DNA from: an uncultured Pseudomonadales bacterium
GTDB taxonomy: Bacteria > Patescibacteriota > Microgenomatia > UBA1400 > MFAQ01
DNA: 64,000 bases
Reading direction: 5' to 3'
Assembly (NCBI GenBank): GCA_964429015.1
Contig: CAYSAM010000003.1
Span: 6,378-70,377, forward strand
This document shows, piece by piece, positions 17,019 through 31,325 of this stretch. The position numbers and the translations under genes are program-made. Numbering within the stretch: position 1 is the first letter of the stretch; the number at the start of each line of letters is the position of its first letter. The notes below the pieces were generated by a model. That model had not been told where the DNA came from. It saw nothing but the letters and a program-made list of their open reading frames with translations, and did not search any database.

Positions 17019-17921
17019 ATGTTAGAACCAAACTTCAAGATAAATATCAAAGATAAAGGAGACAACTCCGCCGAGGTAATTATCGAGCCACTTCCACAGA
17101 ACTTTGGACACACTGTCGGCAATGCTTTAAGACGCGTTTTATTAACTTCTCTTATTGGCGGTGCTGCTATTAGAGTCAAAATCGATGGTGTTACCCATCA
17201 ATTTTCTACCTTAGATGGTATCAAAGAAGACATTCTCGAATTTATTTTAAATCTAAAAACCCTCAACTTTTCTGTCGACTCAGATGAGCCAGTAGAGGTC
17301 AAGCTAAAAGTGTCTGGTGAAAAAACCATTACCGCAGCAGATCTCGATTTACCAGCCAACGTTGAAGTTGCCAATCCCGAAACTGTTCTACTTCACTCCA
17401 CCGCTTCCAAGAGCAAATTCAATGCTACTATCACCGTCGCTTCTGGTATGGGCTATGTTGCTGCTGAAGAACACGCTACCAACGAAGTTGGTGTCATTCC
17501 TCTAGACGCTTCTTTTTCTCCAGTAATCAAAGCCAACTATACCGTCGAAGCTGCTCGTGTAGGTCGATCCAGTAACTACGACAAAGTTCGCTTGGCTCTA
17601 ACTACCGATGGCACCACCACCCCAGAGGCCGCAGTTCGTGAGTCTGCTCGCATTCTTACCAACTTCTTTGGCTTCGTAAACTCCGAAGAGGCCTACACTC
17701 AAGATGAAAAAGTCAAAACCAGCAAAGAAACCTCAGGTTTTGTGGACGATCTCGATCTTCCAACCAGAGTCCTAAATGCTCTTCGCAAATCCGGTATCAA
17801 CAAATTATCAGACCTAAAAGCTCTTTCTCTAGCTGACCTTAAAAAAGTCAAAAACCTTGGCGAAAAATCTGCCCTCCAAGTCGTCGACAAAGCCAAAGAG
17901 AAGGGTGTAATTATTGAATAA
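17019..17921 (+). CDS. rpoA: DNA-directed RNA polymerase subunit alpha (short, 300 aa)
   Basis: ...IEPLPQNFGHTVGNALRRVLLTSL... Confidence 0.93.
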   Translation: MLEPNFKINIKDKGDNSAEVIIEPLPQNFGHTVGNALRRVLLTSLIGGAAIRVKIDGVTHQFSTLDGIKEDILEFILNLKTLNFSVDSDEPVEVKLKVSGEKTITAADLDLPANVEVANPETVLLHSTASKSKFNATITVASGMGYVAAEEHATNEVGVIPLDASFSPVIKANYTVEAARVGRSSNYDKVRLALTTDGTTTPEAAVRESARILTNFFGFVNSEEAYTQDEKVKTSKETSGFVDDLDLPTRVLNALRKSGINKLSDLKALSLADLKKVKNLGEKSALQVVDKAKEKGVIIE

Positions 17922-17924
17922 AAT

Positions 17925-18338
17925 ATGTCACGTCGTCATCAAGCCAAACTTGCCAAACTAAATCGTTCTTCCAAACAAAGAGCCTCTTTGTTTCGCACAC
18001 AGTTAAACCAACTTATCCAAAACGGGTCATTGGCTACTACCGTTGTCAAAGCAAAAGTGATTAAACGTCTTTTTGATCGTCTAGCTTCCAAAGCAGTCGA
18101 TGGTACTTTGTCTGATAGACGACGCATTGCTTCCACTTTGGGTCATCCCAAAAATGCAAACAAGCTTTTCGATCTTATTGTTCCTGCTATGGGCGGTCGC
18201 AAGAGTGGTTTTACCACTATCCAAAAAACTGGTGTTCGCAAAGGCGACGCTACCACCACAGCTACTCTTTCCTTTGTTATTCCCATGCCCGTGCGTCCAG
18301 AAGTAGTTAAGGAAAAGAAAATAGAAAAAACCAAATAA
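17925..18338 (+). CDS. rplQ: 50S ribosomal protein L17
   Basis: MSRRHQAKLAKLNRSSKQRASLFR... Confidence 0.92.
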   Translation: MSRRHQAKLAKLNRSSKQRASLFRTQLNQLIQNGSLATTVVKAKVIKRLFDRLASKAVDGTLSDRRRIASTLGHPKNANKLFDLIVPAMGGRKSGFTTIQKTGVRKGDATTTATLSFVIPMPVRPEVVKEKKIEKTK

Positions 18339-18343
18339 ATCTT

Positions 18344-18784
18344 ATGAAAACAACTACCCTAACACCCAAAGACATCACTCGTAAGTGGCACTTGGTCGAT
18401 CTAAGTGGTCAAGTTCTTGGTCGCTCTGCTGTCAAAATTGCTCGCCTTTTAGCTGGTAAAGACAAAGTTTTAACAGGTGACCATCTCGATAATGGTGACT
18501 ACGTTGTAGCTCTAAACGCCAAAAGTTTTGTTGTAACAGGCAAAAAACTAACCGACAAAATGTATTATTCTCACTCAGGATTTGCTGGTGGATTCAAAGA
18601 AAAAAACCTACAACAAATGATCGAAAAAGATCCTCGTAAGGTTATAGAAAAAGCTGTAAAAGGTATGTTACCAAAAGACAAACACCAACAAAATCGTCTC
18701 CGAAGACTCAAGGTCTACACTGACGACAAACATCCTTACGCTGTTCAACTTGGATTAGTCAAAAAAGAAGAAGCTAAGTCCTAA
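18344..18784 (+). CDS. rplM: 50S ribosomal protein L13
   Basis: ...KWHLVDLSGQVLGRSAVKIARLLAGK... Confidence 0.93.
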   Translation: MKTTTLTPKDITRKWHLVDLSGQVLGRSAVKIARLLAGKDKVLTGDHLDNGDYVVALNAKSFVVTGKKLTDKMYYSHSGFAGGFKEKNLQQMIEKDPRKVIEKAVKGMLPKDKHQQNRLRRLKVYTDDKHPYAVQLGLVKKEEAKS

Positions 18785-18814
18785 ATATAAAATATAAAAT
18801 TTAAAATAATCTAA

Positions 18815-19294
18815 ATGGCTCAAAAACTATCCAAAAAATCCAAAGTTGCAGTAAAACCAGTAAAATCTGCTGTTACCAAAAAAGGTGCCCTAACCATGCC
18901 CAAAGAGTTTTTCTCTGGTCTAGGTCGTCGCAAAACAGCTGTTGCTCGTGTTCGTATCTGGTCTGGTAAGCAAGAAATGGTTGTCAATGGCAAGCCAATC
19001 TCTGAGTACTTCAAAGGTGATGTTTTCAAAAAAACTTACAACGCTCCTTTCTTAGCTACAGACTCCCTTGGTCAGTTTACTGGTAGTGTCAAAGTTGCTG
19101 GGTCCGGCCTTATGGGCCAGGTCGACGCTTTAGTCCACGGTATTGCTCGTGCTTTAATCAAAGTCAATCCAGAAGGCTACAAACAAGTCCTTCGCGATAA
19201 AGGTTTCCTAACTCGTGATCCACGCATGAAAGAAACCAGAAAGCCAGGCCAAGGTGGCAAGGCTCGCTCCAAGAAACAATCTCCAAAGCGTTAA
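18815..19294 (+). CDS. rpsI: 30S ribosomal protein S9
   Basis: ...GLGRRKTAVARVRIW...GGKARSKKQSPKR. Confidence 0.93.
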   Translation: MAQKLSKKSKVAVKPVKSAVTKKGALTMPKEFFSGLGRRKTAVARVRIWSGKQEMVVNGKPISEYFKGDVFKKTYNAPFLATDSLGQFTGSVKVAGSGLMGQVDALVHGIARALIKVNPEGYKQVLRDKGFLTRDPRMKETRKPGQGGKARSKKQSPKR

Positions 19295-19344: not shown

Positions 19345-22300
19345 GTGACCAGTTTTTTTACCTATCTTCACAAGCTTAACAAAGTAAAAGTTGGAATAAT
19401 TTTTTTATCTCTTTGTTTTTTGGTGTCAGTCGCCGTTTTTATTTTGCCTCAACTTCGTCAAACTGCGCGCATCAAACTTGGATCAGTAGACGGGCTAACT
19501 ATAACCGCTGATAAGCAGGACTCTCTCGGTATCTTCACCAATACCCAATTTACCGTCAAAACAGATACTGATCTGAGCTCTTCCGACATCAAAAAGAACC
19601 TCACCATTTTTCCTGCTACAGAATTCGATATTCAGCCGATTTCTGCACGTCAATTCACCTTAACTCCAAAACAACACCTCCTAGATAACAGTATCTACAG
19701 AATCGAAGTCAAAACCAATCAAAAAACTTTTTCGTGGGCATTTCAAACCAAAAATGATTTTCGTGTAGTCAATTCTCTTCCAGCCGACAAAACAGCCTAC
19801 GTACCCACAAACACAGGTATAGAACTAATTTTTAGCCACGACAACTGGGAAGATCCAAAAAGTTTCTTTTCTATTCATCCCAAGACGGAAGTAAGTTTCG
19901 AGCGCCACGGCCGGACCGCCTCATTTTTGCCTAAGTCCTTAAATCCCGGAACTCTTTATACCGTTACTCTCAAAAAAGGTCTAAAGCTAAACGGTACTGT
20001 CGATATCCTAAAAGACGATTTCACTTTTCAATTCGAAACAAAACCTTCCACTCCAATACAATCAAAAGTAAGCTTTTCCAAACTAACTTACGAATTTTCT
20101 GACACAGTAACACCAGCTTTCGATGTCTATGTTCCCAGTGAATCACTTTCGGCTATTTCTGCTGATATTTACAAATATCCCGGAGACTCAAGTTTTCTAA
20201 ATCATCTAAATGAAAAAATCTCTACCCCCTCGTGGGCAACTTACTCGGTTAGTAGCGATGTTTTACCAACTAACAATCTTACCAAAGTGGTTTCCCTAAA
20301 TCTAAATATTCAAAAGCAAAAATATAGTAACTTTTTCTCACTTCCCCAAACCCTACCTCTTGGACAATACCTTATCGAGGTATCTGCTGGTGGTCAAAAA
20401 TCCCAAGCACTATTTCAGGTTACCAATGTTTCCGCTTACTTTACCCAAAGTGGCACCAAAACTCTAGTTTGGGTCAACAGTTTAGCAAACGCTCCACTTT
20501 CTGGTGCTACGGTAACTTACAACAATAACAATCAGACCACCGATCAAAACGGCATCTCTTACTTCGAAACTGAACCCTCAGATATACAACTAGGTTTTCA
20601 AAATAAAACAACTATAGTTGCCGTGAAGCAGTCACTTGGAGCTCTTTATTTTCCTTTAAAGAGCGATTATTCTATTTTTTACCAAAAGCAATCACGCCAA
20701 TCAGATAAGTACTGGAGTTATATTTATCTAGACAGGCCCACCTATCTTCCAACAGATACTGTAAAGCTTTGGGGTTTACTCAAAAACAGAGATCTGCCAG
20801 ATAAAAAAACAGAATTTACCTTAGAGGTTACTCGCTCCGATTATCATTCTTGGGACTATCAGCCCATTGCTGTCTATTCCAAAAAAGTTACAACAACAGA
20901 TTTAGGAACCTATCTCGAAGAAATCAACCTCAATCAGTTTTCACCAGGCTGGTATACACTCAGTTTTAAGGTTGGTAATGATATCGTTATTAATTCAGGT
21001 TTTAGTGTTGAAACCTATGTCAAACCAGCCTACAAAATTTCTGTTCAACCTTCGGTCAAAGCTGCTTTTTCTGGAGATCAAATTAATCTTTTAGGTCAGG
21101 CCCAATTTTTTGAGGGGACACCTGTTGTTGGTTTACCGCTAAAAAGCTACAATTCTGACAGTAGTCTAGCTTCACTTACTCCAATCACTGACAACCAGGG
21201 TAAATTTTCAGTTTCTGTTCCTGTAAATAATGGTTCTGCAAATTATTCTCCTAATAATGTGAGTTTTACTTTCTCTCCAAAAAATCCTGAAGAGGGGCAA
21301 ATTTCTGGAAGCGCCAGCCTTGCTGTCTTTTCCTCTTCTCTCTATTTTCCTTATCCACGCATAGACAATAAAAACAATCAATCATCAGTTACTATCAACC
21401 TTCGTCAAGTAGATCTTCAAAAATACTCTCCCACAGCCGACCTCGCCGAGGTTTTTAATCCAGCACCAAATCAAAATGTTCACGCTGTTATTTATCAAAT
21501 CGATTGGCTCAAAAATCAGGTTGGTACGTACTACGATTTTATAAACAAGGTAACCTCTCCAACTTACGAATACTCACAATCTCAAAAGCAAATAGGGGAG
21601 TTTGACTTGGTTACAAATAGTTCTGGTCAAGCCACTTATAGTGTCAATCTCCCCGAAAATACAACATATAAAATTTCATTTTCTTCCAAGGATTCACTGG
21701 GCAGGACGGTTACTCAAGAAGCCATTTTGTACGGTAACAATTATGGTAATTCAGACGACAATTTTCTTTATCTAAAAACCGATAAAGAACAAGAGAAACC
21801 AAATACGTATAATATCGGCGAGCAAGTTAACCTTCATATTGAACAGGGTGGTAAAACTATAGCCGAAAACGAGTCAGACAAGTTTCTTTTTATTGTTTCT
21901 CAGCGCGGAATCAGATCATATTATCTCTCAGATAATGGCCTATTCAGCTTTAAATTTCCCGAAACCTTTATTCCAAACTTTTTTATCCAAGCAGTAAGAT
22001 TCAACGGTCAAACCTACCAAGCTACCGAAAATCTAAGCCTTTACTTCAACCAGGACTCCAAAAAATTAAACATTAAACTTTCCTCAGATAAACCTCTGTA
22101 CGAACCTGCTGATACTGCCAAAATTAACGTTACCACTTCAGACAATAGTGGCAATCCTATCCCTGCTGAAGTAGTCCTCAACGTGGTCGACGAGTCATAT
22201 TATGCACTCTTCACAGATTATCTCAATCCACTTTCAGAGATATACAAATCTGTCCAAACAGATATCATTACTACTTACGCCACACATCAATATCCAAGCA

Positions 22301-24528
22301 ACAACTCCGGAGCCGAAGGTGGTGGTTGTTTTCTTCCTGGAACCCAAATTCTTATGGCCGATGGAAAATCAAAAGGAATAGAGGAAATAAAAGTAGGTGA
22401 TAATATTAAAACTCGTCAAAGTCTCACTGACAAAAAACTAGTTAGTGCTAAGGTCAAAGAAGTCTTCACTCATCAAGTCAACGGCTACCTGCTAATAAAC
22501 AATCATCTTCGTGTCACCAAGGAGCACAACCTATATGTCAATGGTCGTTGGTTGACGGCAGGTGAGGTTAGGATTGGAGATAGTTATTTGTCAGTCGATG
22601 GAACTTACCAAACAATCAAGTCTATAGAGCCTCAGTCTGGTTTGTACAATGTTTACAACTTATCTATCGACAATCTTCACACCTACTTTGCTGAGGGCTT
22701 TTATGTTCACAACGAAAAAGGCGGTTCCCTTTTCAAAGACACAGCCTTTTTCGGCAACCTAACTACCAATAATCAAGGTCAAGGGTCTGTTGATATAAAA
22801 TTACCCGACAATCTCACTTCTTGGCGCGTGTCTTCAGTGGGACTCAGTTCCAATCTACAAGCAGGCAGTAAAACATTTCCACTGATTGTCAGGTTACCGT
22901 TTTTCCTCACCGCTACTCTTAATACTGACTACTTAGTTTCAGATAAACCTGTTGTTGTTGTACGCGCCTTTGGAGACAGTCTAGTTTCTGGTGATCAGGT
23001 AAATCTAAAAGTCGAGTCTTCTACCTTAAGTATCTCAAAATCAGTTTCTGGTCAAGCTTTCGAGCCCATAAAAATTGACATCAGTCCTCTAAAAGAAGGT
23101 CAACACAAACTAATTTTTACCGCCAGCTCACCAAAAGGTGGTTACAAGTTAGAAAGAACCATCAATGTTCTATCTACTCATCTTTCAAGGAGGTTTACAA
23201 AGTCTATCCCTCTAGCCGAAAATATTTCTTCATCCTCTTTTTCTGCTCAAAATCAAAAACTCGTAATTGCAGATCAAGGGTTAGGGAAGTATTATTCTCA
23301 ACTAACGTCTTTAACTTCCACTTGGGGTGATCGTCTAGATCAAAAAAACGCTCGATCCTTATCTCAGGAGTTGCTAAATCAATATTTCCAGGATCAAAAA
23401 CCCGTGGAGAAAATAGATTTCAATCTATACCAAACAAATACCGGAGGAATATCCCTCTTTCCTTACTCTGGTGCCGACATCGAAAACACATCCTTCATAG
23501 TAGCTTTAAGCAAAAATAAAATTGACAACTCCGCTGTTAAAAGCTACCTGTACTCAGCTCTTACCAAAGCAAAAGATCCAAATACCGCCAGTAAAGCACT
23601 ATTTGGTATTGCCAGTTTGGGTGAGCCGGTTCTTATCCAGATCAACAACATCATCGAAGATTCAAAAATAGATTTGGAGACAAAACTTTATCTTGGTTTG
23701 TCACTAGCAGAAATAGGTGACAAGGAAAAATCTTTATCACTCTACAAGGAGCTACTTGCCACAACCAAATTAGAAGAACAAAACATTTCCATCATTGCAC
23801 TTTTTGCTGACCTGTCAGCCATACTTGGTCAGTCAGAGGCAGACGATTTTCTTAACCGTGTCTTTACCACCTCATCTAAGGAGTACTCATTAGTAAGTCA
23901 AAAACTATTTGCACTTCAGAGTCTGTTACCAAGAGCCAGTACAGAACCAGTCGCTTTTACTTATAGTCTTGCTGGCACAGAAAAAAAGATCACTCTTGCC
24001 AAAGGGCAAAACTTAAACCTCTATGTTACGGAAAAGGACTTAGCCACTCTAAAATTCTCAAATATCTCTGGTCAAGCCATCATCACTTCTGTTATTTCTG
24101 TTCCTGTAGAGCCTGCCAAAATGGCAGCCAATTCCAGCCTAGTTCTTACCAGAACCTTTTATGTTGCGGGTAAAGAATCAACTTCAATAGGTGAATCAGA
24201 CTTAGTTAAAGTCGGTCTTACTTTCCAGATAAACGAAAATCTTCAAGATGGTTGTTATCAAGTTCAGGATGTTTTACCTTCCGGTCTAAAACCTGTTTCT
24301 GCCTTGTTATACCCCGGCCAAGACACCGATTTTTATCACTACCCCTACCAAATCGATGGCCAAAAAGTTAGTTTTTGTGTAACTAAAAACAGCACTAACA
24401 AAAATATTTACTACTATGCAAGAGTCGTAAACCAAGGCGTTTTCAAAGCAGAAAATGCCTTAATTCAGTCCTTAGCTAGCCCCTCCATTTTTACTCTCTC
24501 GCCTTCTTCTGAAGTAAATATAAAATGA
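19345..24528 (+). CDS. large alpha-2-macroglobulin-family surface protein (1727 aa) with embedded Hint / bacterial intein-like domain
   Basis: N-terminal TM/signal; Big-like repeats; A2M-domain signature ...LPDNLTSWRVSSVGL...RLPFF... with VVDESYYAL upstream. Residues 995-1123 run from CFLPGTQILMADG to FYVHN, which is Hint-like. No CxEQ thioester. Confidence 0.8.
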   Translation: MTSFFTYLHKLNKVKVGIIFLSLCFLVSVAVFILPQLRQTARIKLGSVDGLTITADKQDSLGIFTNTQFTVKTDTDLSSSDIKKNLTIFPATEFDIQPISARQFTLTPKQHLLDNSIYRIEVKTNQKTFSWAFQTKNDFRVVNSLPADKTAYVPTNTGIELIFSHDNWEDPKSFFSIHPKTEVSFERHGRTASFLPKSLNPGTLYTVTLKKGLKLNGTVDILKDDFTFQFETKPSTPIQSKVSFSKLTYEFSDTVTPAFDVYVPSESLSAISADIYKYPGDSSFLNHLNEKISTPSWATYSVSSDVLPTNNLTKVVSLNLNIQKQKYSNFFSLPQTLPLGQYLIEVSAGGQKSQALFQVTNVSAYFTQSGTKTLVWVNSLANAPLSGATVTYNNNNQTTDQNGISYFETEPSDIQLGFQNKTTIVAVKQSLGALYFPLKSDYSIFYQKQSRQSDKYWSYIYLDRPTYLPTDTVKLWGLLKNRDLPDKKTEFTLEVTRSDYHSWDYQPIAVYSKKVTTTDLGTYLEEINLNQFSPGWYTLSFKVGNDIVINSGFSVETYVKPAYKISVQPSVKAAFSGDQINLLGQAQFFEGTPVVGLPLKSYNSDSSLASLTPITDNQGKFSVSVPVNNGSANYSPNNVSFTFSPKNPEEGQISGSASLAVFSSSLYFPYPRIDNKNNQSSVTINLRQVDLQKYSPTADLAEVFNPAPNQNVHAVIYQIDWLKNQVGTYYDFINKVTSPTYEYSQSQKQIGEFDLVTNSSGQATYSVNLPENTTYKISFSSKDSLGRTVTQEAILYGNNYGNSDDNFLYLKTDKEQEKPNTYNIGEQVNLHIEQGGKTIAENESDKFLFIVSQRGIRSYYLSDNGLFSFKFPETFIPNFFIQAVRFNGQTYQATENLSLYFNQDSKKLNIKLSSDKPLYEPADTAKINVTTSDNSGNPIPAEVVLNVVDESYYALFTDYLNPLSEIYKSVQTDIITTYATHQYPSNNSGAEGGGCFLPGTQILMADGKSKGIEEIKVGDNIKTRQSLTDKKLVSAKVKEVFTHQVNGYLLINNHLRVTKEHNLYVNGRWLTAGEVRIGDSYLSVDGTYQTIKSIEPQSGLYNVYNLSIDNLHTYFAEGFYVHNEKGGSLFKDTAFFGNLTTNNQGQGSVDIKLPDNLTSWRVSSVGLSSNLQAGSKTFPLIVRLPFFLTATLNTDYLVSDKPVVVVRAFGDSLVSGDQVNLKVESSTLSISKSVSGQAFEPIKIDISPLKEGQHKLIFTASSPKGGYKLERTINVLSTHLSRRFTKSIPLAENISSSSFSAQNQKLVIADQGLGKYYSQLTSLTSTWGDRLDQKNARSLSQELLNQYFQDQKPVEKIDFNLYQTNTGGISLFPYSGADIENTSFIVALSKNKIDNSAVKSYLYSALTKAKDPNTASKALFGIASLGEPVLIQINNIIEDSKIDLETKLYLGLSLAEIGDKEKSLSLYKELLATTKLEEQNISIIALFADLSAILGQSEADDFLNRVFTTSSKEYSLVSQKLFALQSLLPRASTEPVAFTYSLAGTEKKITLAKGQNLNLYVTEKDLATLKFSNISGQAIITSVISVPVEPAKMAANSSLVLTRTFYVAGKESTSIGESDLVKVGLTFQINENLQDGCYQVQDVLPSGLKPVSALLYPGQDTDFYHYPYQIDGQKVSFCVTKNSTNKNIYYYARVVNQGVFKAENALIQSLASPSIFTLSPSSEVNIK
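22327..22713 (+). mobile_element. Hint (BIL/mini-intein-like) domain inserted in the A2M-like protein
   Basis: Begins with Cys and ends with His-Asn (HN); 129 aa. The +1 residue is Glu, not Cys/Ser/Thr, which argues for BIL-type over a canonical intein. Confidence 0.65.
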
Positions 24529-26258
24529 AGTTTTGGCAGCTTATTCTTGGTTTTTCTCTGATGCTATCTATTGTCTTTTTGTCATTCCGGTCCCGGTCTA
24601 ATACTCAGTCCTCATCATTGCTAGTAGAGCGTGGCAATCCAGAGTCAATCTCGACCACCTTTGCCTACGATCAAAATACTTTTCTAAATTCACTTTCATC
24701 TTCAAATTTCTCAAAAAATAAATACGCAAAAGGAGTAATTATTCCTCATCACCTCCTGGCCTCTCCGCTTATTGTCAAAGGAATAAGTATGCTCAGCGTA
24801 ATTGATCCTCAAAGTACTGTTATTCTGCTATCTCCCAATCATGCAAACCTAGGAAGCTGCGACATTGTCTCTTCAAATCTTCCCTGGTCCACTCCATATG
24901 GAGAAGTCGAAATAGACAAAAAATTGCAAGATGAGTACTTAGTTTCAAAACAAATTTGCATTGATAATTACAGTATAAAAGAAGAACATGGTATCGCTAC
25001 CATCTTGCCATATCTTAAGTATTTTTACCCTCAAGTCAAAGTTCTCCCACTCGCATTTAAAAAAAATATTTCCGAGGAAAAGTTAGAAAAAATAGCCTCA
25101 TTGCTTTCACAAACTTTAAAATATCAAACTAACTTTTTAATTAGCTCAATTGATTTTTCACACAACCTTAGTCTTTCAGAGTCCCAAAAAAAAGATTTGC
25201 TAACCGAAAAATATATCGAATACAAAGACGTCAAAACCATAAAAAATCTTTCCTCTGACTTTCTAGATTCGCCATCGGTACTAATAAATACTTTGCAAAT
25301 AGCCCAAAAAAACGATCTTACTACAAATCAAGAAAATCACAAATCTTCGTACGATTTTGGCTCAAACAGCGATGGGGTTACAAGCTATTTTGTTTATAGT
25401 CTGACTCCAAAACAAACAGATCAAAATTTGACTCTTTTATTTGGCGGCGATGTTATGCTTGGTCGCTCTGTAAATACTCAAATTAGAAATTTTGCCGACT
25501 ATGCCTGGCCAACCAAACTAGTTTCCGAGTTCACAAAACAGTCAGATCTTTTTCTTATAAACCTAGAGTCACCATTCAAGTCAGGGTGTGAGCCAACCGA
25601 CAAGGGTATGGTTTTTTGTGCTCACCCCAATAGCGTGGCCACCCTCGTTAGCGCTGGTGTCGACGTTGTCAATATAGCCAATAACCATATTTATAATCAG
25701 GGCAAAGAGGGTTTATTAGAAACTATCAATATTTTAAATAAAAATAACATTGTATTTGTAGGGGCGGACCCCCGTGTCCGCCCGTTAGATAACCCATTTA
25801 GTTCAATCATCACCATCAAAAATACCAAAATAGCCATCTTAGGTTTCAATGATATTGCACCCTTTCCCCAAGAGGTAAACAAATTGACAGTAGAAAATCT
25901 AACAAGCCAAATTAAAGGTGTTCGTTCTCAGGCAGACTTAGTCATTGTTACTTTTCACTGGGGAAACGAATACCAAAAAGCCAGCCCTCGTCAAAAGGAG
26001 TATGCTCACCTAGCTATCGACCAAGGTGCAGATGCCGTCATCGGTGCCCACCCTCACTGGGTGCAAGAGTTCGAGGAATACCAAGGCAAGCCTGTTTATT
26101 ATTCACTTGGCAATCTGGTCTTCGATCAAATGTGGTCCGAGGAAACCAAAAGTGGACTATTAGTAAAGCTTACCTATCAGAATAAAAAGCTTATCAAAAC
26201 CGAAAACTTTCCCGTAAAAATCGAAAACTACGGCCAACCGTATATAATCAAATTATGA
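24525..26258 (+). CDS. Memo-like (AmmeMemoRadiSam B family) :: CapA/PGA_cap metallophosphatase fusion protein with N-terminal TM
   Basis: N-terminal half: GVIIPHHLLASP...LLSPNH...EHGIATILPYL...SSIDFSHN (Memo pattern). C-terminal half: LLFGGDVMLGRSV...IANNHIYNQG...FHWGNEYQ...GAHPHW (CapA). ATGA overlap with the upstream gene. Confidence 0.65.
   Translation: MKFWQLILGFSLMLSIVFLSFRSRSNTQSSSLLVERGNPESISTTFAYDQNTFLNSLSSSNFSKNKYAKGVIIPHHLLASPLIVKGISMLSVIDPQSTVILLSPNHANLGSCDIVSSNLPWSTPYGEVEIDKKLQDEYLVSKQICIDNYSIKEEHGIATILPYLKYFYPQVKVLPLAFKKNISEEKLEKIASLLSQTLKYQTNFLISSIDFSHNLSLSESQKKDLLTEKYIEYKDVKTIKNLSSDFLDSPSVLINTLQIAQKNDLTTNQENHKSSYDFGSNSDGVTSYFVYSLTPKQTDQNLTLLFGGDVMLGRSVNTQIRNFADYAWPTKLVSEFTKQSDLFLINLESPFKSGCEPTDKGMVFCAHPNSVATLVSAGVDVVNIANNHIYNQGKEGLLETINILNKNNIVFVGADPRVRPLDNPFSSIITIKNTKIAILGFNDIAPFPQEVNKLTVENLTSQIKGVRSQADLVIVTFHWGNEYQKASPRQKEYAHLAIDQGADAVIGAHPHWVQEFEEYQGKPVYYSLGNLVFDQMWSEETKSGLLVKLTYQNKKLIKTENFPVKIENYGQPYIIKL
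25749..25779. repeat. REP-like palindrome (family 2) inserted in-frame within the CapA-like CDS
   Basis: GTAGGGGCGGACCCCCGTGTCCGCCCGTTAG; near-identical to the element downstream of the RAYT at 44628. Confidence 0.7.
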
Positions 26259-27394
26259 AAAAACTTTTTACCCTACTTTTTTTAATTGCATTCATTTTTG
26301 TTACAAAACCAGTTGAGGCTGTTTACTTTGGCTCTGGCGAAAAACTTTCTTTTCCCAAAACTCAAAAATTCAACGAAACAGTTTTTGTTGCTGCTTCCGA
26401 CCTAAACTTCGAAGCCGACGTCACTGGGGACCTTCTCTGTGCCGGTCAAAATATTACTATCTCCGGCAAAATTACCGGCGATATTCTCTGTGCAGGTCAA
26501 AATATTACTATCACAGGTACCGTCGACGGCAACGTCCGCGTAGTAGGCCAACAGGTTAATCTAAATGGTTCTGTATCACGCAACTTAAGTGTTGTTGCTC
26601 AAGTCCTAAAACTTTCTAGCAGCTCCAATATCAAAGGAGATATTTACTACGGAGTCCAAAGTGTTGATTTGCAAGGTGTTTTAGGTCGAGATCTGGCCGG
26701 CGGCTCAGAAAGCATCAATATTTCTGGGTCGCTATTAAGAAACGCCAAAATAGCCGCCAACAAAATAAATATTGACACCAATGCTAAATTGGGAGGAGAT
26801 CTAGAATACTTTATCGAAAAAACCGGTACTGCCAACCTCAACGAAAAAAGTATCAAGGGGAAAGTTACTCGCCACGAAGTCGAATTAAAGGAAAAAGATC
26901 AAATCAATAGTGGTATCAAAAAAGTTACGCCTGCAATTGTAGTTACTAAAACAGTCCTCTCAATCATATCCTCAATTTTGTTAGCTTGCATGCTTTTGTA
27001 TTTTGTCCCTGCTAGAGTTTCTCAAGTCGTCACAGTTCAAAAATCTCATCCAGTTAAATCAGCCTTTGTTGGTTTGGCGGTTTTGGTTACCACGCCTTTA
27101 GCTATTATTATTTCTAGTATTTCTATAGTCGGTTTGGGATTAGCTGCTGTTATTTTACTTTTTTACATAATTAGTCTTATTCTTGCTTCTAGGTTTGTAG
27201 CTATTTATATCGGTGGTTTGTTAATGGAAAAAATCACGGCAACTGGTAAGTCAGTGTATCTTAGCGCTGCACTAGGTTGTTTGGCTTTTGGCATAGTCGC
27301 TATTATCCCTGTAGTTGGACCAATTGTTTCTTTCCTAATTTTTCTAATTGGGCTTGGATCAACTTTTCTCTCATACCTCCCCTCAGAAAAATAA
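26255..27394 (+). CDS. bactofilin-like beta-helix repeat protein with signal peptide and C-terminal multi-TM domain
   Basis: Repeats GDLLCAGQNITISGKITGDILCAGQNITITGTVDGNV...; four hydrophobic helices at the C-terminus; overlaps the upstream stop. Confidence 0.55.
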   Translation: MKKLFTLLFLIAFIFVTKPVEAVYFGSGEKLSFPKTQKFNETVFVAASDLNFEADVTGDLLCAGQNITISGKITGDILCAGQNITITGTVDGNVRVVGQQVNLNGSVSRNLSVVAQVLKLSSSSNIKGDIYYGVQSVDLQGVLGRDLAGGSESINISGSLLRNAKIAANKINIDTNAKLGGDLEYFIEKTGTANLNEKSIKGKVTRHEVELKEKDQINSGIKKVTPAIVVTKTVLSIISSILLACMLLYFVPARVSQVVTVQKSHPVKSAFVGLAVLVTTPLAIIISSISIVGLGLAAVILLFYIISLILASRFVAIYIGGLLMEKITATGKSVYLSAALGCLAFGIVAIIPVVGPIVSFLIFLIGLGSTFLSYLPSEK

Positions 27395-28123: not shown

Positions 28124-29182
28124 ATGGCCAAAAAATCAAAAAATGAAGAAGCAAAAGGTGTCCAAACTCACGTCGACAATAGCGCTCGTCTTACCGCAGT
28201 AAAAATCGCCATGCAACAAATCACCAAACAATTTGGTGAAGGCGCCATCATGCACATGGACTCCGACAAAATCAACGACAAAATCCCCGTAATCTCTACT
28301 GGCTCCATAAGTTTAGATTTAGCTCTTGGTGTTGGTGGTTTCCCCAAAGGTCGCATTATCGAAGTCTACGGTCCAGAGGCTTCAGGTAAGACCACGGTTG
28401 CTCTCCACGTTGTTGCCGAAGCTCAAAAGCTTGGAGGTATCGCTGCCTTTATCGATGCAGAGCATGCTTTAGATCCAAGCCGTGCCAAATCTATTGGTAT
28501 AAATTTAGAAGAACTCTTACTCTCCCAGCCAGACAATGGCGAACAGGCACTAGAGATTGCTGAAACTTTAATTCGTTCTGGCGGAGTCGATGTTGTTGTC
28601 ATTGACTCAGTTGCCGCCCTAGTTCCCAAAGCTGAAATCGAAGGGGAAATGGGGGATGCTGCCATGGGTATGCAAGCGCGTCTTATGAGTCAGGCACTAA
28701 GAAAAATAACCGGTGCCATTTCCAAAAGTAAATGTATTGTTATTTTTACTAATCAACTAAGAGACAAAATTGGTGTCATGTTCGGTAATCCCGAGGTCAC
28801 TACTGGTGGTAAAGCGCTAAAATTCTATGCCTCCATCCGTATCGACATGCGTAAAATTGGCAACATCCAAGAGGGAGACGAAATTATTGGTTCACGTCAT
28901 CGCGCTAAAATAGTCAAAAACAAAGTTGCTTCCCCTTTCAAATTAGCCGAGTTCGATGTTCTCAATGTTGGTGGCATTAGTAAGTTAGGAGATCTTCTAG
29001 ACACCGCCATTGCCTACGGCGTCGTCGAAAAAGCCGGCTCCTTTATTAAATACGATGGCCAAACTCTGGCGCAAGGACGCGATGCCGCCAAAGCAGTTTT
29101 GTCTGGTCAGCCAGAAACTGTTGAGAAAATCAAAGAGCAAGTAATGGAAAAGGTCAATGCCGGAGTACAACCAGAAAAATAG
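28124..29182 (+). CDS. recA: recombinase RecA
   Basis: ...[27 protein letters not shown]...FIDAEHALD... Confidence 0.96.
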
Positions 29183-29591
29183 TGATATTCGGGCGGTACT
29201 TGTAAAGTATGCCGCCAACATTCTTAGTCGACGCCCATATTTTTATGGCCAAATTAAAAAAAAGCTAGAGGTGCGTTCTCAAAAATTAGGTTTCGAAGGT
29301 GTCAATGGTGTCATCGAAGGTATCCTCAAAGACTTACAGGGTAGTGGCTATTTAGATGACTCTTATCTAGCAGAAAGCTTTGTTAGGCGTTGTCTTGGTA
29401 AAGGTCAGGGTCCAAAAATAATTAAATACAAGTTAGGTCAACTAGGGCTTAGCGTAGCTGCGATAACCAGCGCCTTATCTACTCCAGAGAACCATGACCT
29501 TCTAGAGCAAGCCAAAGCCAAAATAGCCTCAAAATACTCTTCCTCCGATCCATACATTGTCAAAGCTAAGCTTTACCAGCGTGGTTTTTAG
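29157..29591 (+). CDS. recX: RecX-like regulatory protein
   Basis: ...[33 protein letters not shown]...; overlaps the recA 3' end by 26 nt. Confidence 0.6.
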
Positions 29592-29738
29592 TGTAAAATA
29601 CATCTACTAGTCACACGATTTTATCTTTACGCAATGAAAACTCTACTCCCCAAAAACTCCTCACTCCAAACATTTCTGTTGGAGATTTTTCGCGCACAAT
29701 AAAGTCCAAAGACTAGGTTAATATTTATCGCAAAACCT

Positions 29739-31325
29739 ATGTCACTTTTATCTATTTTTAAGTCTGGAATTTTCAAAAAATCAAAAGATTCTGTTGCAAA
29801 TGTTGAAACTGTAAAGTCATCTCCTGTTGTAATTAAGTCAGAGGTCGCCTCTATCGCACCAAAAACGTCTACGATCAACGATCTACAAACTACAAACTCT
29901 GTCGACACCACCGCAATCATTGCCCAAGCTACCGCTACGGCTCATGCTCAAGCCAGAGAAATTATTATTTCCGCCAAAGATGAAGCCTTCAAAGTCAAAG
30001 ATCAAGCTATAAAAGATGCTAGGTTGCAGCTCGAAGATATCGAAGTAAAAGTAAAGTCGCTAAACCAAAAACAGCAAGCTTTAGTCCAAGAAGAAAATAA
30101 TCTTAAAAAAGACAGACAGCAACTAGAGGTAACCCAAAAGCAAATCGAAGAAATAAAAGCCAAACTTCAAGACCATGCTGATCAAATGGTCAAAAAACTA
30201 GAAAAAGTTGCATCCCTAACCACCGAACAAGCCAAAAAAGAACTTCTCGCTCAAGTTGAAAAACGCTCTTCCATGGAGATTGCCAGAGCAATCAAAGAAA
30301 CAGAAGAAGTCGCCAGAGCCCAAGCCCAAGATAAGGCCAGAGAAATTCTCGTCGACTCTATGAGGTCAGGGGCTACTGATTATGTTGCAGAGTACACAAT
30401 TTCTACAGTCCCAATTCCAGACGAAGAAACCAAAGGTAGAATAATTGGTAAAGATGGTAGAAACATTAGAATCTTCGAAAAAGTTTCTGGTTGCGACGTA
30501 TCCATGGATGATTCACCAGACGAAGTAAAACTCAGTAGTTTTGATCCGGTCAGAAGAGAAATTGCCCGCCAAACCTTAATTCATTTAATTAAAGATGGTC
30601 GTATTCATCCTGCTCGTATCGAAGAATACTTCGAAAGATCAAAGAGAGATGTTGAGCAGATCATGTTTCAAGAAGGACAAAAGCTTTGTCACGCTGTTGG
30701 CGTCTACAATATGCACCGTGACATTGTTGCCATGTTAGGACGATTCAAGTTCCGCACCTCATACGGCCAAAACATGATCAGTCACACACTGGAGGAAACC
30801 AGAATCGGTATCAAAATTGCTAGTGAAATTGGCGCCAATGTCGACATTGTTCGTATGGGCTGCTTGCTTCACGATATAGGTAAAATTATCGAAGGTGAAG
30901 GTAATCACATCGAACTAGGTGTTAATTATCTTAAAAAATACAATCTTCCCCAGCCCATCATTGACTGTGTAGCTCAACACCACGAAGATGAAGAATTTAG
31001 TTCTATAGAATCAGTCTTGGTTTATATTTCTGATGCTATCTCTGGTTCTCGCCCCGGTGCTCGCCACGAAAATACCGAAGACTATGCTAAGAGAATAAAA
31101 CAACTAGAAGAAGTAGCTCGCAAACACCCAGAAGTCGAAGATGCTTACGCCATTTCCGCTGGTCGCGAAATTAGAGTCATCGTCAATCCTCACAAGGCAG
31201 GCGATGCTCAGCTAGTCATCTTGGCTCAAGCCATAAGAGACGAAATCAGAGACACTATGACCTTCCCTGGCACCGTCAAAGTAAACGTCATTCGCGAAAC
31301 CCGCGCCTCCGAAATCGCCAGTTAA
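29739..31325 (+). CDS. rny: ribonuclease Y (KH plus HD domains)
   Basis: KH: IIGKDGRNIRIFEKVSGCDV. HD: ...ISHTLEETRIGIKIASEIGANVDIVRMGCLLHDIGK. C-terminus ...VNVIRETRASEIAS, like B. subtilis ...VIRETRAVEYAK. Confidence 0.9.
   Translation: MSLLSIFKSGIFKKSKDSVANVETVKSSPVVIKSEVASIAPKTSTINDLQTTNSVDTTAIIAQATATAHAQAREIIISAKDEAFKVKDQAIKDARLQLEDIEVKVKSLNQKQQALVQEENNLKKDRQQLEVTQKQIEEIKAKLQDHADQMVKKLEKVASLTTEQAKKELLAQVEKRSSMEIARAIKETEEVARAQAQDKAREILVDSMRSGATDYVAEYTISTVPIPDEETKGRIIGKDGRNIRIFEKVSGCDVSMDDSPDEVKLSSFDPVRREIARQTLIHLIKDGRIHPARIEEYFERSKRDVEQIMFQEGQKLCHAVGVYNMHRDIVAMLGRFKFRTSYGQNMISHTLEETRIGIKIASEIGANVDIVRMGCLLHDIGKIIEGEGNHIELGVNYLKKYNLPQPIIDCVAQHHEDEEFSSIESVLVYISDAISGSRPGARHENTEDYAKRIKQLEEVARKHPEVEDAYAISAGREIRVIVNPHKAGDAQLVILAQAIRDEIRDTMTFPGTVKVNVIRETRASEIAS

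Follow-up and report, generated by a model that had tools for sequence, protein, structure and literature searches.

In a bacterium of the Candidate Phyla Radiation (CPR; Patescibacteria), a 64,000-nucleotide stretch of contig CAYSAM010000003.1 (hereafter the window) carries the gene for a giant surface protein of the alpha-2-macroglobulin (A2M) type, in which the bait region is interrupted by a 129-residue block having the boundaries of a self-processing Hint domain. Domains of this kind, among them those termed bacterial intein-like (BIL), are usually seen as autoprocessing inserts that occur sporadically in variable, secreted proteins, and the only trigger that is, to our knowledge, assumed for A2M-family proteins is the cutting of the bait by foreign proteases. 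The question raised by the locus is what an autoprocessing domain does at the bait itself, where it is found superphylum-wide and under stronger constraint than its host. In the explanation that we consider best, our confidence in the whole being evenly balanced, the block is a catalytically competent A-type BIL/Hint domain in the Gly-rich bait loop of a Memo-linked, thioester-less A2M-like surface protein, and would have been fixed in that loop since early in the CPR/Patescibacteria radiation.

Identification of the Hint domain

The gene, the domain, and its predicted active-site residues are located in the window as follows.

19345..24528, plus strand: gene for the A2M-like surface protein without a thioester; 1727 residues, GTG start, precursor of 191.8 kDa (open reading frame and translation; Pfam Big_5, MG2, A2M_BRD, PT-HINT, and A2M)
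22327..22713, plus strand: Hint domain of the A-type BIL class, 129 residues (995–1123), 14.6 kDa (PT-HINT match, AlphaFold2 model, Foldseek, and absence from homologues)
22327..22329, plus strand: TGT codon of Cys995 (Hint Cys1), predicted nucleophile of the N-S acyl shift; invariant in 103/103 distinct copies, 80/80 species, and 61/61 further representatives
22516..22527, plus strand: block B, T1058-K-E-H1061 (Hint T64..H67, TxxH), with T64 and H67 invariant in 103/103 copies
22708..22713, plus strand: His1122-Asn1123 (Hint H128-N129), predicted Asn-cyclisation site for C-terminal cleavage; invariant in 103/103 copies and 80/80 species, TIGR01443 above cutoff

The preliminary description, made from the letters alone, had delimited the block as running from GGG/CFLPGTQILMADG to FYVHN/E (slashes mark the domain edges) at 22327–22713, within a 1727-residue A2M-family protein lacking the CxEQ thioester motif. 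The translation agrees with both boundaries (continuing as EKGG), and the open reading frame contains the motifs VVDESYYAL, LPDNLTSWRVSSVGL, and RLPFF quoted for the family. Pfam PT-HINT (PF07591), the profile suggested for a search, was indeed found at residues 1004–1123 (E-value, 3.9e-14; 53.5 bits for the whole protein against a gathering cutoff of 27.7), and matched the 129-residue block alone with an E-value of 1.1e-15; the NCBIfam model intein_Cterm (TIGR01443) scored 24.4 bits against the block (cutoff, 15.6). The AlphaFold2 (AF2) model of residues 960–1160, computed from a 35-sequence alignment, has pLDDT values above 90 over the whole block, and the Hint model is contiguous over the 129 residues with no endonuclease insert. 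In a Foldseek search of the PDB, the first match was BIL2 of Tetrahymena BUBL1 (PDB ID: 6y75/6tmm; E-value, 1.6e-11; TM-score, 0.82; sequence identity, 28%), followed by the BIL of C. thermocellum (2lwy; TM-score, 0.85; root-mean-squared deviation, 1.7 Å), with mini-inteins (DnaB, gp41-1, and RecA) at lower ranks and Hedgehog and Vint further down; 66 PDB Hint/intein structures matched the model at an E-value of 1e-3 or less. The best solved relatives by sequence are the PT-HINT-type 8w20 and, again, 2lwy. The opposite possibility, that the Cys...His-Asn block is a normal part of the macroglobulin (MG)-domain architecture without a Hint fold, is contradicted by the fold found with AF2 and Foldseek and by the absence of the block from the Escherichia coli A2M (ECAM, YfhM).

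Over the 103 distinct copies collected, C1, F2, T6, I18, T64, H67, G84, N111, T119, A122, H128, and N129 are invariant, including the N-terminal Cys and C-terminal His-Asn from which Hint-fold boundaries had been proposed, and the length is 129 residues in 95 copies. Scanning one genome for each GTDB species yielded at least 432 confirmed stretches, the best 80 of which, each from a different species, all contain a complete junction-Hint-junction region and were used for residue counts. The residue following the domain (+1), Glu in the window, is Asp in 39 species, Glu in 22, Gln in 12, Asn in 3, Ser in 2, Ala in 1, and Lys in 1. A canonical intein was rejected, since +1 is not Cys, Ser, or Thr in 78 of the 80 species and there is no endonuclease; the same facts bear out the earlier assignment of the block to the BIL type. 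A toxin-release module of the PT-HINT kind was also rejected, the 604 residues downstream being A2M, thioester domain (TED)-like, and MG10-like rather than a toxin. No second Hint copy was found within the 64-kb window.

By their published description, A-type BILs end in a conserved His-Asn, are mostly not followed by a nucleophile, and cleave themselves, with noncanonical splicing in some cases (PMC7765530, PMC5874633). The block is a Hint domain of this type and agrees with it in every testable trait except the sporadic distribution in variable, non-conserved hosts, for which the picture is mixed: the host is exported and a bait loop is usually variable, yet the family and the site are conserved across CPR phyla with vertical inheritance.

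Position of the Hint domain in the bait loop

The domain is located between the Pfam domains A2M_BRD (residues 819–955) and A2M (residues 1133–1192), and its two flanks in the window are the following.

22255..22326, plus strand: disordered bait loop forming the N-terminal flank (residues 971–994), ending in ...HQYPSNNSGAEGGG, with Gly994 providing the carbonyl predicted to be activated (pLDDT below 50 in both AF2 models; aligns with ECAM 921–949)
22714..22740, plus strand: C-terminal flank E1124-K1125-GGSLFKD, with a non-nucleophilic +1 residue and then the invariant Lys, in a disordered linker (pLDDT below 50)

In the AF2 model of residues 960–1160, pLDDT falls below 50 at about 971–992 and 1126–1132, and in the larger model the disordered segments are 983–994 and 1124–1132. 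An alignment with A2M homologues, by which the preliminary description had expected the insertion to be defined, gave a precise site. The block is absent from ECAM and from 86 of the 120 homologues that make up our set of best matches listed, and the short Gly-rich loop of the Hint-less relatives was aligned with MAFFT (...SHQYP..GGAE[KRQMG]GG-EGG..R.F.D.A..), the Hint domain falling exactly between GG and E. In the hhalign alignment with ECAM, Gly994 pairs with Gly949 and the Hint domain is a gap (949/950), whereas after the domain TTNNQGQGSVDIKLPDNLTSWRV stands opposite ECAM 973–995 in both the profile and the hhalign alignments. In the ECAM structure, the 20 residues Arg923–Leu942 are missing after elastase cleavage, and the bait region lies within MG8 (PMC4498604). 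These residues, RYGADIYDIYGQVIEGQGRL (numbering checked), align with ...SVQTDIITTYATHQYPSN.. of the family just upstream of the Hint domain, and Arg956 of the cleaved bait arm is just downstream of the site. Based on these alignments, we place the Hint domain in the middle of the bait-region domain, at the predicted equivalent of ECAM 949/950 and thus between Arg923–Leu942 and Arg956, which upholds the placement at the bait region first proposed.

The residue preceding the domain (–1) is Gly in 76 of the 80 species, Ala in 2, Thr in 1, and Ser in 1, and direct translation shows the same Hint domain at the loci having Ala, Thr, or Ser. A Lys residue is found within +1 to +3 in all 80 species (at +2 in 76), and likewise in all 61 further representatives. 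A target-site duplication (AEGGG and EKGG flanks) was considered and rejected: a pair of ExGG units in tandem (GGAEKGG-EGGG) is already present in the Hint-less relatives, and the site of the Hint domain is between the two.

The bait-loop motif G-A-E-x-G-G(-E-G-G) is conserved from Firmicutes to CPR, both in the window (22294–22326) and at the equivalent position of Hint-less proteins. Since A2M bait regions are normally hypervariable, this conserved motif suggests a specific partner or chemistry at the loop even in Hint-less members.

Distribution, inheritance, and selection

Among the 120 homologues listed, 34 have the same block at the same site, down to 27% identity over the whole protein. 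In an exhaustive search of 1.84 billion cluster representatives, the best 150 matches were analysed, and 65 of them showed the host-Hint architecture. The record titles of the 80 species stretches comprise Collier-, Gottesman-, Moran-, Dojka-, Peregrini-, Peri-, Magasanik-, Falkow-, Uhr-, Nomura-, Gracili-, Sacchari-, and Portnoybacteria, and WOR-1. The Hint-in-bait arrangement is a widely conserved feature of CPR/Patescibacteria, present in at least 80 species, and not a single-gene oddity.

The pairwise identities of the Hint domain and of its host are strongly correlated (r = 0.91), the domain being the more conserved of the two in 99% of pairs (mean identity, 54% versus 42%). Relative to L087, an orthologue of 86% identity, the Hint domain has a dN/dS of 0.039, against 0.092 in the N-terminal part of the host and 0.100 in the C-terminal part. 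The GC content of the Hint domain equals that of the host gene; a recent horizontal acquisition was rejected because of this equality and the congruent divergence of domain and host.

The sequence AEGGG-GGGGG-SLF is found at the site in P0010 and P0019, two proteins without the Hint domain. The closest relatives of both carry the domain (P0003 with 66% identity to P0010, and P0002 with 58.5% identity to P0019; bootstrap nearest-neighbour support, 1.0 and 0.99, respectively), and both Hint-less proteins nest in the Collierbacteria-type clade. P0019 is encoded at the locus that the A2M gene occupies in the window, between the gene for ribosomal protein S9 and the Memo/PGA_cap-bactofilin-RecA genes; the Hint-bearing P0012 and P0001 are likewise followed by the Memo/PGA_cap and bactofilin-like genes, and P0001 is also preceded by S9. 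The nesting of Hint-less genes at the same locus among Hint-bearing ones argues that the domain has been lost cleanly, or swapped for a Hint-less allele, at least twice, and a protein with a continuous loop is viable.

Many of the carrier records bear the title "uncultured Pseudomonadales", "Gammaproteobacteria", or "Nanoarchaeia archaeon" (L005, L007, L009, L013, L020, L024, L044, and others). Their A2M-Hint regions are 45–67% identical to the query, as are those in Collierbacteria and other Patescibacteria records; a wrong title, or a contig placed in the wrong bin, is the probable explanation.

Structure of the A2M-like host protein

Outside the bait loop, the gene encodes the following parts.

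19390..19446, plus strand: sole N-terminal hydrophobic anchor or signal segment, residues 16–34, VGIIFLSLCFLVSVAVFIL (the only segment with a Kyte-Doolittle value above 1.6)
19756..20040, plus strand: Big_5 Ig-like domain, residues 138–232 (PF13205; E-value, 2.5e-8)
20719..20856, plus strand: MG2 macroglobulin domain match, residues 459–504 (PF01835; 44.4 bits)
21799..22209, plus strand: bait-region domain A2M_BRD, residues 819–955 (PF07703; 44.2 bits)
22741..22920, plus strand: A2M domain, residues 1133–1192, with the PDNLTSWR motif, where the MG fold resumes after the insert (PF00207; 35.3 bits; aligns with ECAM from 973 onward)
23281..23934, plus strand: all-helical TED-like domain, residues ~1313–1530 (AF2 secondary structure; profile alignment to the TED/MG10 region of ECAM)
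23332..23343, plus strand: R1330-L-D-Q1333, standing where the thioester motif C-L-E-Q would be (in hhalign register with C1187-LEQ of ECAM, at low local confidence)
24145..24483, plus strand: C-terminal MG10-like domain, residues 1601–1713 (Pfam bMG10, E-value 0.0032, below cutoff; AF2 beta-sandwich; aligned to the C-terminal MG of ECAM)

The bulk of the protein beyond the anchor segment is expected to be extracytoplasmic. A single-sequence phmmer search of the whole protein against the PDB retrieved Hint proteins only, and ECAM was reached by the family profile and hhalign: the profile of 44 family members matched ECAM/YfhM and the Salmonella A2M with E-values of 1e-30 to 1e-26, ahead of CD109, TEP1, C5, A2M, and C3 as weaker-ranked matches, and hhalign of the family to ECAM gave a probability of 99.9 over 1441 columns. 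The AF2 model of residues 528–1727 (mean pLDDT, 84.5) consists of beta-sandwich MG domains and the all-helical domain at ~1313–1530, and the best PDB matches of the host model are ECAM (5a42) and SaA2M (4u48), with E-values of about 1e-41. The elements of the A2M superfamily fold, namely multiple MG domains, a bait-region domain, a TED-like helical domain, and a C-terminal MG domain, are all present.

The protein contains only four Cys residues (positions 24, 995, 1637, and 1678), of which Cys995 is Hint Cys1. A CxEQ thioester motif was found neither in the 1727 residues nor in 119 of the 120 homologues listed. At the thioester position, 43 of 44 aligned family members have Arg, in the pattern R-[LVI]-[DE]-Q, which suggests a conserved replacement by a nearly invariant Arg rather than random decay. 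The host protein has the A2M fold without a thioester and is neither a type I nor a described type II bacterial A2M, since it has no CxEQ or pbpC neighbour and no mag operon.

Genomic neighbourhood

24525..26258, plus strand: exported Memo and PGA_cap fusion gene, 577 residues, overlapping the A2M stop codon by 4 bp (Pfam; N-terminal signal/anchor)

Upstream, the gene order is rpoA-L17-L13-S9 and then the A2M gene; downstream, the Memo/PGA_cap gene is followed by those for the bactofilin-like protein, RecA, and RNase Y. A Memo-family gene (PF01875) lies directly downstream of the A2M family gene in seven loci (L001–L004, L085, L086, and L087), and a Memo/PGA_cap gene is within the 4-kb flank at 55 of the 80 species loci (L005–L084). 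The CPR partner combines Memo with PGA_cap and a signal/anchor peptide, whereas Memo alone is found in the Firmicute Pseudobacteroides cellulosolvens (L085). Judged by this gene order, the thioester-less Big_5-A2M and Memo look like a conserved two-gene module, apart from type I (A2M with PBP1c) and type II (mag operon).

Third in the cluster is a gene (26255–27394) for an exported bactofilin-domain/DUF8173 protein with the signal peptide MKKLFTLLFLIAFIFVTKPVEA. A bactofilin-like protein outside the cytoplasm is unusual, and Collierbacteria-type loci conserve it behind the A2M-Memo pair. The gene for the giant surface protein is packed between the ribosomal/rpoA cluster (17019–19294) and the RecA/RNase Y genes (28124–31325), in the same order in related genomes; such gene packing is typical of a very compact CPR genome.

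Relatives of the Hint domain outside the A2M family

The other 85 of the best 150 representatives are unrelated proteins, 76 of which have 2–11 tandem Hint copies (33–45% identical to the present domain) joined by linkers of 1–6 residues such as KG, KGG, and KGGG (...HN/KG/CF...). In the 156 non-A2M Hint domains, Lys occupies +1 in 98, and Gly is the commonest residue at –1 (76/156). The arrangement G/C...HN/K-G is thus a trait of the whole Hint subfamily. Because the non-A2M relatives mostly share Lys at +1, the obligatory Lys is more likely a part of the domain chemistry than a host-specific feature, and we have softened the idea that Lys after His-Asn is an A2M-specific adaptation. Some of the tandem-Hint proteins (P0126–P0271; e.g., P0128, P0126, P0131, and P0136) have pilin-like N-termini or Tim44-like, Big_9, or MopE parts.

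Proposed self-processing of the bait loop

Considering the conserved catalytic residues described above and the dN/dS of 0.039, it is highly probable that the Hint domain actively works as a self-processing element, with the bait loop as its place of action. The protein would first be exported by the Sec pathway and folded, and self-processing would take place afterwards. Cys995 is predicted to attack the carbonyl of Gly994; by this N-S acyl shift, the N-terminal part of 111 kDa (111.4) would come to end in a thioester, and cyclisation of Asn1123 would release the 66-kDa (65.9) C-terminal part starting with Glu1124-Lys1125. Because there is no Cys, Ser, or Thr at +1, the canonical branched intermediate could not form, and the thioester would instead be resolved by an amine of the C-terminal flank: either the new alpha-amino group of Glu1124, by the aminolysis route proposed for A-type BILs (reportedly by Dassa et al. 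in 2004, for that of C. thermocellum), or the epsilon-amino group of Lys1125, giving an isopeptide bond as reported for BIL2. The 14.6-kDa Hint domain would thereby be freed and the halves rejoined (~177 kDa) by way of a loop rich in Gly, similar to the one in the Hint-less orthologues, and a fraction of the molecules may end as two noncovalently associated chains.

We give excision with rejoining a chance at or slightly below even of being the main outcome. Rejoining is favoured because an intact loop is viable, a constitutive cut would correspond to the spent state of ECAM, and an amine donor is conserved after His-Asn. The intact loop is a functional state, since the Hint-less P0010 and P0019 at the same locus keep a continuous Gly loop. 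In ECAM, the cut bait springs the trap irreversibly (PMC4498604); by analogy, a constitutive bait cut would be self-defeating. Ligation has precedents among the relatives, as BIL2 splices without a +1 nucleophile via a Lys isopeptide (PMC8616854), and A-type BILs "can splice completely" (PMC5874633).

Several points weigh against the favoured explanation or speak for a maturation by cleavage only, in which the Hint domain cuts at one or both of its ends and the two chains (111 kDa and 66 kDa) are not rejoined but held together by a shared MG domain. In this alternative, a serious rival that we regard as possible though not probable, the domain would stand in, as part of the protein itself, for the protease that cuts the bait, in a manner comparable with the processing of C3/C4/C5 by furin at the corresponding loop, or would be the source of a self-triggered conformational change. 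A-type BILs often yield cleavage products only, and one review denies ligation (PMC7765530); autocleavage is the best-documented activity of A- and B-type BILs and of PT-HINT domains (PMC7765530, PMC5874633, and the Pfam description). There is no +1 nucleophile, the Hint domain lies exactly where protease cleavage untethers the ECAM bait, and MagD, another A2M without a thioester, is processed in vivo to a ~100-kDa form (PMC5764988). Moreover, conserved residues and relatives are the source of every chemical step above, the alignment to ECAM has anchors on either side but low local confidence in the loop itself, and the spliced loop would read AEGGG-EKGG as opposed to the poly-Gly of the Hint-less orthologues, although it is plausible that the two loops are equivalent. 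The bait region being inside an MG domain (MG8 in ECAM; PMC4498604), cleaved chains could stay associated. On the other hand, Hint-less orthologues with an uncut loop at the same locus would be odd if the cut were essential, and a cut bait is the spent state in ECAM-type traps. Simple hydrolysis would not need the conserved Lys after His-Asn, and the closest solved relatives ligate their flanks.

A second alternative, which we consider somewhat unlikely, is that the domain is a selfish or neutral passenger, an endonuclease-less mini-intein-like element that entered a tolerant Gly-rich loop, brings no advantage, and is kept only since splicing failure would harm the host. Its chemistry may be the same as in the explanation that we favour; the evolutionary meaning would differ. 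The clean presence or absence among close orthologues (P0010/P0003, 66%; P0019/P0002, 58.5%) and the occurrence of Hint-bearing and Hint-less forms under the same CPR phylum names (Uhrbacteria and Dojkabacteria) are consistent with a passenger. So are the nearest relatives, tandem arrays of 2–11 copies in Gly-rich linkers of unrelated proteins, which resemble element proliferation, and the invariant splicing residues would also be expected of a trapped intein. The element, however, has no homing endonuclease, and the congruence of Hint and host (r = 0.91) and their identical GC content give no sign of transfer. A disordered loop should also tolerate imprecise deletion or decay of a passenger, yet dN/dS is lower in the domain than in its host (0.039 versus 0.09), the length is fixed at 129 residues, and the domain has been kept in at least 80 species of different phyla.

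A further reading, the most novel but an unlikely one, is put forward tentatively: the BIL would be the reactive centre of a macroglobulin without a thioester of its own, and the Gly994 thioester in mid-bait would be resolved by the epsilon-amine of a lysine, either Lys1125 in cis, leaving an isopeptide-branched bait loop, or a Lys of a target in trans, resulting in covalent target capture. If this were the case, an acyl donor generated by the Hint domain and usable only once would have taken the place, in CPR bacteria, of the classical CxEQ warhead or of triggering by an external protease, and both the arming of the A2M and the function of the domesticated BIL would be of a kind undescribed in bacteria.

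A general trans-conjugation warhead, with the Gly994-Cys995 thioester being resolved by any external amine or hydroxyl (a Lys of the captured protease, or a cell-wall or host-surface group), seems quite improbable. It would supply the covalent capture chemistry lost at the R-L-D-Q site of the TED-like domain in a family having no thioester Cys, and the thioester would form at the bait, where the protease binds. BIL2 is reported to transfer its N-terminal flank to Lys of other proteins (PMC8616854), and the Hedgehog Hint domain transfers its N-terminal flank to cholesterol (PMC5874633). The Hint-less majority (86 of the 120 listed), however, also lacks the thioester Cys, so that the Hint domain is no general compensation; a Hint thioester is spontaneous and short-lived, not latent like the buried CxEQ, and the invariant Lys is available in cis. 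Finally, an inactive structural or binding module (Hint folds without processing activity exist, as exemplified by a weak AXH match) or a canonical splicing intein (which Ser at +1 would permit in 2 of the 80 species) is very improbable, because catalytic residues invariant in 103 copies are unexpected of an inactive domain, and class-1 splicing is excluded for nearly all copies by the lack of Cys, Ser, or Thr at +1 in 78 of the 80 species and of an endonuclease.

In the explanation that we favour, a competent Hint domain at work in the bait loop points to a way, not described before, of processing or arming a protease-trap-like protein without an enzyme. If the domain cuts, the host would be the first A2M-like protein to process its own bait; if the halves are rejoined via the conserved Lys, the isopeptide chemistry of BILs, known from one ciliate protein, would be extended to a large bacterial family. 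Being a widespread exported 190-kDa protein with a Memo-family partner, the host is a tractable target in CPR bacteria, whose surface biology is little known, and the 129-residue domain with its Gly/Cys...His-Asn/x-Lys flanks may serve as a tool for protein engineering.

Comparison with known systems

In the literature searched on Hint, intein, and BIL domains in connection with macroglobulins, bait regions, BUBL/BIL2, or CPR/Patescibacteria, we found no description of this architecture, and the recent Patescibacteria papers examined contained no mention of macroglobulin, A2M, intein, or Hint. The combination of Hint and A2M is visible in precomputed Pfam annotations, where it is apparently uninterpreted.

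The domain resembles the A-type BILs (Cth-BIL, 2lwy) in its Hint fold of ~130 residues without an endonuclease, its N-terminal Cys, TxxH, "VYN" block, and His-Asn, and also in the non-nucleophilic +1 residue, the exported host, and the location in a loop of a usually variable kind. In marked contrast to the described BILs, which occur sporadically in hypervariable regions of non-conserved proteins, it is found at one fixed site of one conserved host family throughout the superphylum, with co-divergence of domain and host and a constant [acidic/amide]-Lys C-terminal flank. BIL2 of Tetrahymena thermophila BUBL1 is the best structural match; both domains lack a +1 nucleophile, and a Lys always follows the domain in the present family. 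BIL2, however, is eukaryotic, has ubiquitin-like flanks, and serves in conjugation, whereas the flanks here are the two halves of an A2M fold, in which a role of the Lys would follow by analogy only. With the PT-HINT domains (PF07591) of polymorphic toxins, such as 8w20, the block shares the best Pfam model, the best PDB sequence match, secretion, and predicted self-cleavage, but PT-HINT releases a C-terminal toxin, and the C-terminal 604 residues here form an MG9-CUB/TED-like-MG10 body. Canonical mini-inteins (DnaB, RecA, and gp41-1) have the same fold and blocks A, B, F, and G, but need Cys, Ser, or Thr at +1, sit in conserved motifs of mostly replication or repair proteins, and spread by homing, none of which holds for the present domain.

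The host shares multiple MG domains, a bait region, a TED-like domain, and a C-terminal MG domain with the bacterial A2Ms of type I (ECAM/YfhM and SaA2M) and type II (MagD/YfaS). It differs from type I, a CxEQ-containing lipoprotein with a pbpC neighbour, in having RLDQ and in being encoded between S9 upstream and Memo/PGA_cap downstream. Like type II, it has no thioester but retains a bait region (PMC5764988); unlike type II, it is not encoded in a six-gene mag operon, has a Big_5 domain and an anchor, and is accompanied by Memo/PGA_cap and bactofilin-like partners. The novelty lies in a known autoprocessing domain occupying a new, conserved, and mechanistically suggestive position. In the complement proteins C3, C4, and C5, the loop equivalent to the bait region is the place where the protein is cut into two chains and where the anaphylatoxin is inserted as an extra domain; both chains contribute to one MG domain, which keeps them joined. 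The complement loops are cut by furin-type proteases, whereas the A2M-like protein described here has an autoprocessing domain built into the loop.

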